DNA from: Escherichia coli
GTDB lineage: Bacteria; Pseudomonadota; Gammaproteobacteria; Enterobacterales; Enterobacteriaceae
DNA length: 64,000 bases
Strand: one strand, 5' to 3'
Assembly: GCF_003790525.1 (NCBI RefSeq)
Contig: NZ_CP033635.1
The notes beneath the pieces were generated by a model. That model saw only the letters and a list, made by a program, of their open reading frames with translations. It was not told the origin of the DNA and ran no database searches. Both the position numbers and the translations under genes were made by a program. Positions 45,559-46,966 of the stretch are shown here, one piece after another (position 1 is the stretch's first letter; each line of letters begins with the position of its first letter).

Positions 45559-45858
45559 TTAACCGCGAAGCTGTTGCTGCTTGAGGGTCGTTTTAACCAG
45601 ACGCCAGGCGCTCCATACGCCAAAACCGCGTCTGGCCCAGCGGACCAGCATATTAGGATGGCGAATCGTCCAGATCGCCATCACGCTACTGCCAACCAGC
45701 GCCCAGGAGCGCAGACTTAGCAGCATATTCCAGCGACGATCGTAAGCGCCTGTTGCCTCCAGCCATTCACGACGACTGGCAGAAAGATCCAGCCGTTGTT
45801 GCTGGATCTGGCTAAGCAGTTGCGCCTTACGTCGTTCACGTTCGACTTTACTGCTCAC
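45559..45858 (-). CDS. yqjK: Small membrane protein YqjK (99 aa), GTG start
   Basis: GTG start at 45858 preceded by GAGGAGGAG on the minus strand; MSSKVERERRKAQLLSQIQQQRL...; overlaps the yqjE stop. Confidence 0.78.
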   Translation of the reverse strand: MSSKVERERRKAQLLSQIQQQRLDLSASRREWLEATGAYDRRWNMLLSLRSWALVGSSVMAIWTIRHPNMLVRWARRGFGVWSAWRLVKTTLKQQQLRG

Positions 45859-46252
45859 GGGACTCCTCCTCGAGCAGCTGCCGATCGTTTGCCAGCTCAT
45901 GGCGTGTATGGCGCAGCAAGGTGGATTTACGCGATTTACGTAACGTCCAGATACCGCCAATCAGTGCCAGTAGCAGCAACACCACGGTGGTGGCAATCAT
46001 CGCATTCAGGCGATATTGCGGATCAACCGCCCAAATAATTAGCACCATCAGGCTCATAAGACCAAATGCAGCGAAAAGCATCGTCAGGCCCAGCATCAGT
46101 AAAAGTTGAAAGAGATTCGCTTTTTCCTCTTCCAGCTCCACCACCGCCAGCCGCAGACGTGTTTCCACCATTTCAACCATGATGGAAACAATTCGCTGCC
46201 CGATGCCCAGAACGCTTTTACCGGGCCCTTGCGCGTGATGAGTGTCCGCCAT
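45848..46252 (-). CDS. yqjE: Inner-membrane protein YqjE (DUF1469, 134 aa)
   Basis: ORF 45848-46321 trimmed to MADTHHAQGPGKSVLGIGQRIVSIMVE. Confidence 0.85.
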   Translation of the reverse strand: MADTHHAQGPGKSVLGIGQRIVSIMVEMVETRLRLAVVELEEEKANLFQLLLMLGLTMLFAAFGLMSLMVLIIWAVDPQYRLNAMIATTVVLLLLALIGGIWTLRKSRKSTLLRHTRHELANDRQLLEEESREQ

Positions 46253-46254
46253 AA

Positions 46255-46560
46255 TTAACGACGCGACAGCAGAACGCCGAGCACTACACCGATTGCAGCG
46301 CCAATGCCCACGCCGGTCCACGGATTTTCACGCACATACTCATCGGCACGCGCCGCCGCGACACGGGTTTGTTTGGCGATGGCATCACCGGTTTCACCCA
46401 GGCGATAACGGCTCTGTTTCAGTGCCTGCTCCGCTTTGCTACGAATCTTACTCAACTCTTCTTTCGACTTCTCGCCAGATGAGCTAAGCACCTCTTCCAG
46501 CGTATCGGAAAGGGATTTCAACTCAGCACGCAGATGTTCCGTAGTGTGTTCTTTCGACAT
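46255..46560 (-). CDS. yqjD: Ribosome-associated membrane-anchored protein YqjD (ElaB/YgaM family, 101 aa)
   Basis: MSKEHTTEHLRAELKSLSDTLEEVL... with C-terminal TM anchor ...GVGIGAAIGVVLGVLLSRR. Confidence 0.9.
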   Translation of the reverse strand: MSKEHTTEHLRAELKSLSDTLEEVLSSSGEKSKEELSKIRSKAEQALKQSRYRLGETGDAIAKQTRVAAARADEYVRENPWTGVGIGAAIGVVLGVLLSRR

Positions 46561-46597
46561 AGTTTTCTCCAGGTGAGTAAGTAGTGACTATTGTGAG

Positions 46598-46966
46598 TTA
46601 GTAGTCGCGCGCTTCCAGCTTTTTCAGCTCTTCCTGCGCTTCTGCCAGTTTCCGTTCGCGTTTGGCAATCTTATCTGCATCGCCTTTTTGCTTCGCCTCG
46701 GCTAAATCTTGCTGGCGTTCCGCCACCTCATCTTTCTGCTTTGCGATTTTCTTCTGATGATCGGCACGCAGTTGGCTATCTGAACAGTTGGCCCGGACTT
46801 CACTCAGGGCTTTATTCAGACCGTCAATACGATTCTGGTTTTGGTGTTTTTCGGCATAGCTGATCTCCTTAAGGATATTTTGCTCCTTTTCCTGACACAG
46901 GGTAGTGGCATAACTACCGGCACTAAGAGCAAAGAGAGAAACAGCTAAAGCGATGCGGTATTTCAT
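46598..46966 (-). CDS. yqjC: Periplasmic DUF1090 protein YqjC (122 aa)
   Basis: MKYRIALAVSLFALSAGSYATT signal peptide; charged coiled-coil-like remainder. Confidence 0.85.
   Translation of the reverse strand: MKYRIALAVSLFALSAGSYATTLCQEKEQNILKEISYAEKHQNQNRIDGLNKALSEVRANCSDSQLRADHQKKIAKQKDEVAERQQDLAEAKQKGDADKIAKRERKLAEAQEELKKLEARDY

Follow-up and report, generated by a model that had tools for sequence, protein, structure and literature searches.

The yqjCDEK locus of Escherichia coli: a GTG start for yqjK at a conserved position and a probable reinitiation junction between yqjD and yqjE

Introduction

Four small genes, yqjC, yqjD, yqjE and yqjK, are packed on the minus strand at positions 45,559 to 46,966 of a 64,000-nucleotide stretch of Escherichia coli DNA (contig NZ_CP033635.1 of assembly GCF_003790525.1; the whole stretch is called the window here, and all positions refer to it), and they raise the question of where the last of them begins, to what extent translation of one gene is tied to that of the next, and what the set might do together. 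The best explanation overall, to which a probability of roughly nine in ten may be given, is the chromosomal yqjCDEK operon, a stationary-phase and stress locus under the control of sigma-S and CsrA. The region is the already annotated and partly studied operon of that name, and nothing in it lies outside known annotation and literature; the finding adds little, since RefSeq and the literature already cover the four genes with their boundaries (the GTG start among them), the promoters, regulation by CsrA and the role of YqjD.

Identity of the operon and sequences compared

The layout set out in a preliminary description, made from the letters of the window, was borne out by a reading of the sequence: the quartet lies on the minus strand with spacings of 37 and 2 nucleotides (nt) and a final overlap of 11 nt (45858-45848). 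The gene names given there hold as well, with Pfam matches to DUF1090, DUF883 with DUF883_C, Phage_holin_3_6 and YqjK far above the gathering thresholds and in agreement with RefSeq. The RefSeq boundaries of all four genes are identical in E. coli SMS-3-5 and K-12 MG1655 (b3097-b3100). The DNA is 100% identical to that of SMS-3-5 over 2001 nt, and likewise to that of other strains, and a match to the region turns up in 5422 of the 5426 complete genomes of the species. It is flanked by yqjA-mzrA upstream and yqjF-yqjG downstream, so that the operon sits between mzrA and yqjF as it does in K-12. The features are compiled in Table 1.

For comparison, 80 species-representative loci from Enterobacteriaceae were used, some junction counts being taken over 82 loci, and the four genes occur in identical order in all 80. 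The strength of a Shine-Dalgarno (SD) sequence was expressed as its duplex energy with the 3' end of the 16S RNA (the anti-SD), with random positions as background. A word-indexed protein search returned relatives in Enterobacteriaceae only, and the distant relatives of YqjK had to be sought by an exhaustive HMMER search.

Table 1. Genes and control elements of the yqjCDEK locus (positions in the window; promoter hexamers are predicted)
Feature	Position	Strand	Description
yqjC promoter (yqjCDEK)	47048..47082	minus	-35-like TTGGTG 47082-47077, 17-nt spacer, -10 TATGAT 47059-47054 preceded by C
yqjC ribosome-binding region and CsrA site BS1	46974..46981	minus	AUGGAAGG; A(-15) = 46981
yqjC	46598..46966	minus	ATG 46966, TAA 46600-46598; 122 amino acids (aa), DUF1090
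Internal sigma-S promoter for yqjDEK	46661..46673	minus	inside yqjC coding sequence; -10-like TAAGAT 46673-46668, start region CCAAA 46665-46661
yqjD leader with CsrA sites	46567..46634	minus	GGA 46634-46632 (BS2), 46616-46614 (BS3), 46570-46568 (BS4)
yqjD	46255..46560	minus	ATG 46560, TAA 46257-46255; 101 aa, DUF883 and glycine-zipper tail anchor
yqjE	45848..46252	minus	ATG 46252, TAA 45850-45848; 134 aa, Phage_holin_3_6, two transmembrane helices
yqjK Shine-Dalgarno	45863..45871	minus	GAGGAGGAG in last yqjE codons; AGGAGG core 6 nt before GTG
yqjK	45559..45858	minus	GTG 45858-45856, TAA 45561-45559; 99 aa, 300 nt, PF13997
Operon 3' end	45526..45549	minus	hairpin GGCCGGA-GCCAU-UCCGGCC 45549-45531; RNA 3' end 45526

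The start codon of yqjK

The GTG at 45858, proposed as the yqjK start in the preliminary description on account of its strong SD, is the start annotated in RefSeq, and it is accepted here as well supported by comparison. Its SD forms a duplex of -11.8 kcal/mol; the 80 loci have a median of -9.3 kcal/mol, where the background has one of -2.2, and 71% of the loci reach -9 kcal/mol or lower, compared with 0.5% of random positions. The interchange of GTG, ATG and TTG is a classical signature of a genuine initiation site, and a start codon stands at the position homologous to GTG 45858 in each of the 80 loci (GTG in 48, ATG in 29, TTG in 3), where chance would provide one with a frequency of 3/64 per codon. 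In 15 of 82 loci the start projected by tblastn was one codon off and was moved to the adjoining start codon. Among more distant relatives, 56 diverse YqjK-family members with 23-61% identity align from M1, and the column of the initiator methionine is invariant.

The frame of the present strain is open upstream of the GTG as far as TTG 45960, and the mechanical list of open reading frames (ORFs) runs to that codon, giving the 133-aa over-extension to which the preliminary description had drawn attention. This openness, together with database entries of 113 aa and of 123-125 aa (for example P0001, a 'putative inner membrane protein' of 113 aa), could be taken to mean that yqjK starts at ATG 45900 (113 aa) or TTG 45960 (133 aa) in this strain, with the GTG as an internal valine codon. 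In K-12, however, the yqjK frame reads ATG AGT TAG, with the TAG 12 codons upstream of the GTG, which makes an extension impossible there; here the TAG is a TGG, which opens the spurious 133-aa ORF, and the extensions to 113 and 133 aa are therefore specific to strains with this change. ATG 45900 has no SD (+1.9 kcal/mol against -11.8 for the GTG), and in 63 of the 80 species loci an upstream in-frame stop leaves no alternative start at all. Moreover, the dominant sequence clusters are those of 99 aa (866, 308 and 279 members), and the distant homologues, 84-104 aa long, are aligned from residue 1. An upstream start is thus considered very improbable, and the GTG at 45858 is retained.

Public E. 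coli YqjK calls of 113, 123-125 and up to 155 aa (P0001, P0002, P0006, P0008-P0010 and others) are over-extensions. The comparative confirmation of the start is of use as a warning against database entries of this kind, in the range of 113-133 aa.

A more radical alternative holds that yqjK is not a real gene, merely an ORF that overlaps the end of yqjE. It can appeal to the YqjK peptide and profiling entries that were not found in the supplements searched, and to the listing of YqjK among the uncharacterised y-genes (PMC11551758). The sequence behaves, however, as that of a gene under constraint, with a ratio of nonsynonymous to synonymous substitution rates (dN/dS) of about 0.09 in the median (range 0.05-0.20) against 11 genera, which is similar to that of its neighbours. 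The PF13997 match, at residues 14-86 of 99, reaches 88.3 bits against a cut-off of 28.1. The exhaustive HMMER search of 1.84 billion proteins retrieved 133 family representatives at E <= 1e-3, with the same gene neighbourhood wherever context was available. In the alignment of the 56 homologues R22 is invariant too, and L14, I18 and D40 are at least 90% conserved. An AlphaFold2 (AF2) model based on the family alignment has high confidence (predicted local distance difference test, pLDDT, 92.5) starting at residue 2, and it contains two long helices that span residues 2-66 and 68-98. That yqjK should be no gene is accordingly the least credible of the alternatives, and it is treated below as the fourth gene of the operon.

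Coupling at the gene junctions

Translational coupling had also been suggested from the organisation of the genes. The part of this claim that stands best concerns yqjD-yqjE, while the yqjC-yqjD pair appears uncoupled and yqjK has an SD of its own. An abutting or overlapping stop and start, combined with a downstream cistron that lacks an SD, is the configuration expected for termination-reinitiation. It is found at the yqjD/yqjE junction, where the gap measures 1-2 nt in 82 of 82 loci (2 nt here) and the yqjE ATG has no SD, the duplex energy being +1.1 kcal/mol in the window, +0.7 kcal/mol in the median, and -6 kcal/mol or lower in 0 of 80 loci. The same SD-less yqjE abutting yqjD recurs in three distant loci. 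Because yqjE starts 1-2 nt past the yqjD stop and never has an SD, ribosomes that finish yqjD and then reinitiate probably account for the main part of its synthesis. In the accessible part of the supplement to PMC13245402, the N-terminal peptide of K-12 YqjE, MADTHHAQGPGK..., was detected by N-terminomics but lacks Ribo-RET support, while YqjD is backed by the two kinds of data; this fits reinitiation and is no proof of it. Its consistent lack of an SD and its position against yqjD make yqjE well suited as a natural test of reinitiation.

The situation at yqjE/yqjK is different. In 79 of 82 loci the two genes share 1-32 nt, and in the remaining 3 a 2-nt gap separates them, so that the overlap expected of a coupled pair is present; the start of the downstream gene, in contrast, is far from SD-less. 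Since yqjK has this strong SD and no conserved RNA structure that would occlude it, independent initiation is possible and coupling is not required, and yqjK can probably initiate independently as well. At the yqjC-yqjD junction the spacer ranges from 28 to 88 nt across loci, and because of this variable spacer, and of the SD and the promoter that yqjD has to itself, the pair is judged from its sequence not to be coupled.

Two further devices were considered for the yqjE/yqjK junction and discarded. A hairpin that would hide the yqjK start, with the GUG in its stem and AGGAG in its loop, folds with 10 bp in E. coli alone and is not conserved. A programmed frameshift that would fuse YqjE to YqjK, brought to mind by the strong internal SD, was rejected, as there is no slippery site and the frame relation of the two genes varies by genus between overlaps of 1, 4 or 7 nt and overlaps of 5, 8 or 11 nt.

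A small rearrangement at this junction deserves mention in its own right. In Escherichia and a few Citrobacter the spacer between the SD and the yqjK start is 1 nt shorter, which shifts the yqjE frame, and the yqjE stop, in place of the TGA within GTGA (4-nt overlap, the common form), becomes a TAA that lies 7 nt beyond it (11-nt overlap; window 45848-45875). The yqjK start and its SD stay fixed between the two forms, and YqjE measures 134 aa here instead of 131-132 aa.

Promoters, CsrA sites and the 3' end

The preliminary description had advised a search for an RpoS-type promoter upstream of yqjC. Sigma-S dependence has in fact already been demonstrated in K-12 by Pourciau et al. 2023 (PMC10746276), and the motifs match in the window. 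The K-12 transcription start site (TSS) of yqjC, sigma-S dependent, lies at -82 from the ATG, which corresponds to window position 47048 (G here, A in K-12). Upstream of it, the -35-like and -10 hexamers of Table 1 are our predicted assignment. The second sigma-S TSS of K-12 was placed at positions -105 to -101 relative to the yqjD ATG, on a CCA with AA after it (PMC10746276), and these positions fall exactly on the CCAAA of the internal promoter, for which the TAAGAT may be taken as the putative -10. A scan for consensus promoters and terminators was dropped as evidence: its hit counts equalled the shuffle expectation, and it missed the experimentally mapped promoters as well as the 3' hairpin.

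The CsrA sites follow the same pattern. In K-12, BS1, an AUGGA with A(-15), is the essential CsrA site and overlaps the yqjC SD, BS2 and BS3 lie between -50 and -80 of yqjD, and BS4 is on the yqjD SD (PMC10746276). In the window the AUGGA occupies 46981-46977, and the GGA motifs of the yqjD leader are at -74, -56 and -10 of yqjD, the last (BS4) within the GGAG of its SD. The duplex energies are -6.2 kcal/mol for yqjC and -6.4 kcal/mol for yqjD.

By Term-seq, an RNA 3' end was also recorded reproducibly, under two conditions, within the yqjD ORF, 30 nt past its start codon (window 46530; K-12 3249405). An RNA running from the internal promoter start at 46661-46665 to this end would be about 135 nt long and would carry BS2-BS4; such an RNA might derive from the leader, from attenuation or from decay.

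At the other end of the operon, the primary yqjK 3' end was mapped by Term-seq to K-12 3250409, 33 nt after the stop (Adams et al. 2021, PMC7815308 supplement), which is window position 45526, 5 nt past the hairpin. The hairpin folds as the centroid structure with -14 kcal/mol. In the same supplement (PMC7815308) this end has a Rho score of 2.1 and the entry 'significant Rho termination region: Yes', and an intrinsic terminator score of 2.13, under the threshold of 3.0. Searches for known RNA families gave no match inside the operon, the sole matches being elements of the repetitive extragenic palindromic (REP) type in the yqjF-yqjG spacer.

The yqjDEK triad and the place of yqjC

The genes of the distant YqjK homologues, 26-34% identical, come directly after a Phage_holin_3_6 gene, and that gene after a DUF883-like one, all tightly joined; this triad is found with or without the flanking genes known from E. 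coli. In locus L084 (1030-3929), which is of the Enterobacterales type and has a YqjK of 34% identity, yqjA-mzrA, yqjDEK and yqjF-yqjG are present and yqjC is not, which suggests that the DUF1090 gene was inserted or lost independently of the triad; in locus L087 the triad lies in quite different surroundings. The same DUF883-yqjE-yqjK synteny has been described across the DUF883 family (Njenga et al., bioRxiv 10.1101/2024.08.16.608256). The tightly joined conserved core is thus yqjDEK, not yqjCDEK, and its close junctions persist far outside Enterobacteriaceae. Because the triad occurs without yqjC, yqjC may be regarded as a lineage-specific addition to the locus in Enterobacteriaceae, which also accords with the promoter it has to itself and with a regulation that is in part opposite (PMC10746276).

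The protein YqjC itself matches DUF1090 (PF06476) with 118.8 bits against a cut-off of 24.4, and the dN/dS of its gene is about 0.10. Its N-terminus is signal-peptide-like, with hydrophobic residues 5-23 and an end in ...SYA, and C24 and C61 are kept in 79 of 80 orthologues. YqjC is best described as a predicted secreted DUF1090 protein that is presumably regulated in part separately.

For YqjD, the preliminary description's reading as a membrane protein of the ElaB family that associates with ribosomes agrees with the literature, where it is a C-tail-anchored member of the ElaB/YgaM family (PMC10746276; bioRxiv 10.1101/2024.08.16.608256), according to which YqjD, ElaB and YgaM hold the 50S subunit at the membrane and obstruct the exit tunnel (Njenga et al., bioRxiv 10.1101/2024.08.16.608256). 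YqjD matches PF05957 with 49.5 bits (cut-off 25.4) and, at residues 72-101, PF19029 with 57 bits (cut-off 27), and its single hydrophobic segment comprises residues 81-99. It shows the features of the DUF883 family, namely the N-domain, the DUF883_C glycine-zipper helix at the C-terminal end, and no signal peptide. Ribosome binding and the inhibition of translation were demonstrated with the K-12 protein, to which the YqjD of the window is identical. Its K-12 N-terminal peptide, MSKEHTTEHLR, is listed with Ribo-RET support in the accessible part of the PMC13245402 supplement. A sequence search of the PDB with YqjD found no meaningful solved relative.

What YqjE and YqjK might do

The proposal that YqjE and YqjK were both small membrane proteins stands for YqjE, with its two transmembrane helices, and is weaker for YqjK, whose hydrophobic stretch is faint. 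YqjE, to which RefSeq attaches the name 'phage holin family protein', matches Phage_holin_3_6 (PF07332; residues 19-127, 75.8 bits against a cut-off of 28.4), and the name is treated here as that of a clan and not of a function. A holin-like toxin restrained by YqjK, by YqjD or by both, in a cryptic membrane-permeabilising or persistence module and not in an accessory to a ribosome-hibernation factor, would nevertheless agree with this Pfam assignment and RefSeq name, with the two helices and charged C-terminus of YqjE, and with a report that cells overexpressing YqjE stop growing and show increased persistence (Chowdhury et al. 2016, cited in both PMC10746276 and PMC11302039). On the other hand, the Pfam family name itself says 'putative', and none of YqjD, YqjE and YqjK matches a PHROGs phage family at E <= 0.01. 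There is no endolysin or prophage context and there are no lysis genes near yqjE, which is flanked by yqjD and yqjK throughout the 82 loci as well as in the distant ones. yqjE, a core gene of the chromosome, evolves under strong purifying selection (dN/dS 0.058), and the homologues in P. aeruginosa were reported to be non-inhibitory on overexpression (PMC11302039). A toxin role is therefore deemed unlikely.

For the yqjCDEK operon as a sigma-S- and CsrA-controlled locus, the following course of events can be put forward. Transcription would start 82 nt upstream of yqjC, as mapped in K-12 and as the sequence features here would allow, and the second sigma-S promoter inside yqjC, demonstrated in K-12, would yield a yqjDEK message; the RNA would end just past the hairpin, in a Rho-dependent region. 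yqjC and yqjD would each initiate at their own moderate SD, covered by CsrA in growing cells, the output of YqjE would be tied to that of YqjD by reinitiation after the yqjD stop, and the yqjK GTG would be reached by terminating ribosomes and by fresh 30S subunits. YqjD would then act as the tail-anchored inner-membrane protein that has been published, tethering ribosomes and blocking translation at the exit tunnel. YqjE, with its two helices, and YqjK, as a long helical hairpin, appear to be ancient and always adjacent partners of DUF883 proteins, and they would most likely form a membrane complex with the YqjD tail anchor and modulate its insertion, oligomerisation or activity. That they are dedicated membrane partners of YqjD (a receptor, an insertase helper or a gate for the glycine-zipper anchor), with reinitiation fixing the ratio of YqjE to YqjD, is offered as a tentative idea, more plausible than the toxin role and still short of even odds. 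If it were true, the tethering and inactivation of ribosomes would be switched on and off by the widespread DUF883-YqjE-YqjK triad, acting as a membrane machine of three parts. According to a 2024 review of the y-ome, yqjC, yqjE and yqjK are still uncharacterised (PMC11551758), and they thus remain in the y-ome despite adjoining a ribosome-hibernation factor.

Several points weigh against this picture as a whole. In the accessible part of the TRAINSPOTTER N-terminomics table (PMC13245402 supplement), which is sorted by locus tag and has entries for b3098 and b3099, YqjK is missing, and no yqjK entry was found in the supplements of an acid-stress ribosome-profiling study and of a Salmonella riboproteogenomics study; translation of yqjK from the GTG is argued from conservation. 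Coupling, in turn, is argued from gene geometry and SD strength, and across 30 genera no conserved occluding RNA structure was found at the yqjK SD, where a 5-bp stem of -2 kcal/mol shows no covariation. The hydrophobic stretch of YqjK is marginal, with a Kyte-Doolittle 19-residue maximum of 1.35. The one published hint of a YqjD-YqjE-YqjK complex is a computational helix-dimer prediction (PREDDIMER, ref 68 of PMC10746276), and the paralogues ElaB and YgaM function without such neighbours (bioRxiv 10.1101/2024.08.16.608256).

Neighbouring sequence

Downstream of the operon, the yqjF-yqjG spacer (44800-44980) measures 247 bp, compared with 69 bp in K-12. It contains an Rfam ES036 match at 44825-44865 just over the gathering score, a partial naRNA4 at 44871-44907, and a terminator-like hairpin on the plus strand at 44931-44957, and it looks like a strain-specific insertion of REP elements or bacterial interspersed mosaic elements (BIMEs). 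The frame of yqjF (44981-45463) is open from ATG 45463 (160 aa); the RefSeq start is at 45373 (130 aa, MKKLEDV...) and has an SD of -6.8 kcal/mol. Upstream of yqjA, RefSeq lists a 27-aa small protein at 48184-48267 on the minus strand (coordinates converted from the locus table), which is yqiM in K-12 and a 'hypothetical protein' in SMS-3-5.

Comparison with known systems

Compared with the K-12 yqjCDEK operon, the present locus has the same gene order, lengths and junctions. There are 35 substitutions in 2 kb, and YqjC, YqjD and YqjE are 100% identical as proteins and YqjK 98%. For the AUGGA of BS1, the GGA motifs of BS2-4 and the internal promoter's CCAAA, the offsets found here agree with those in print, the activity of these elements having been demonstrated in K-12 alone.

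Set beside termination-reinitiation systems, in which stop and start abut or overlap as in ATGA or TAATG, yqjD/yqjE, 2 nt apart, has the expected geometry, and so do the yqjE/yqjK overlaps of 1, 4, 8 and 11 nt across genera; yqjK, however, with its strong SD, departs from what is expected of a dependent downstream cistron.

Within the protein family, YqjD scores 92.5 bits, below the NCBIfam ElaB equivalog cut-off of 139, and is thus a paralogue and not ElaB; ElaB and YgaM, unlike YqjD, have no partner genes of the E and K type. The operon PA3040-PA3042 of P. aeruginosa (PMC11302039) likewise consists of a DUF883 gene, a YqjE-like gene and a small third gene, with spacings of less than 15 bp, and, unlike the E. 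coli operon, it has no yqjC-like gene. According to its authors PA3042 has no recognised domain, and overexpression was not growth-inhibitory, the phenotypes concerning biofilm and tobramycin (PMC11302039). Stationary phase and envelope stress are the conditions in which the operon is expressed (PMC11302039). With respect to the DUF883 family of C-tail-anchored, ribosome-inactivating proteins described by Njenga et al., the YqjD of the window carries the two Pfam domains and, at its end, the glycine-zipper anchor; it adjoins yqjE- and yqjK-like genes, an arrangement that those authors treat as archetypal for the family.

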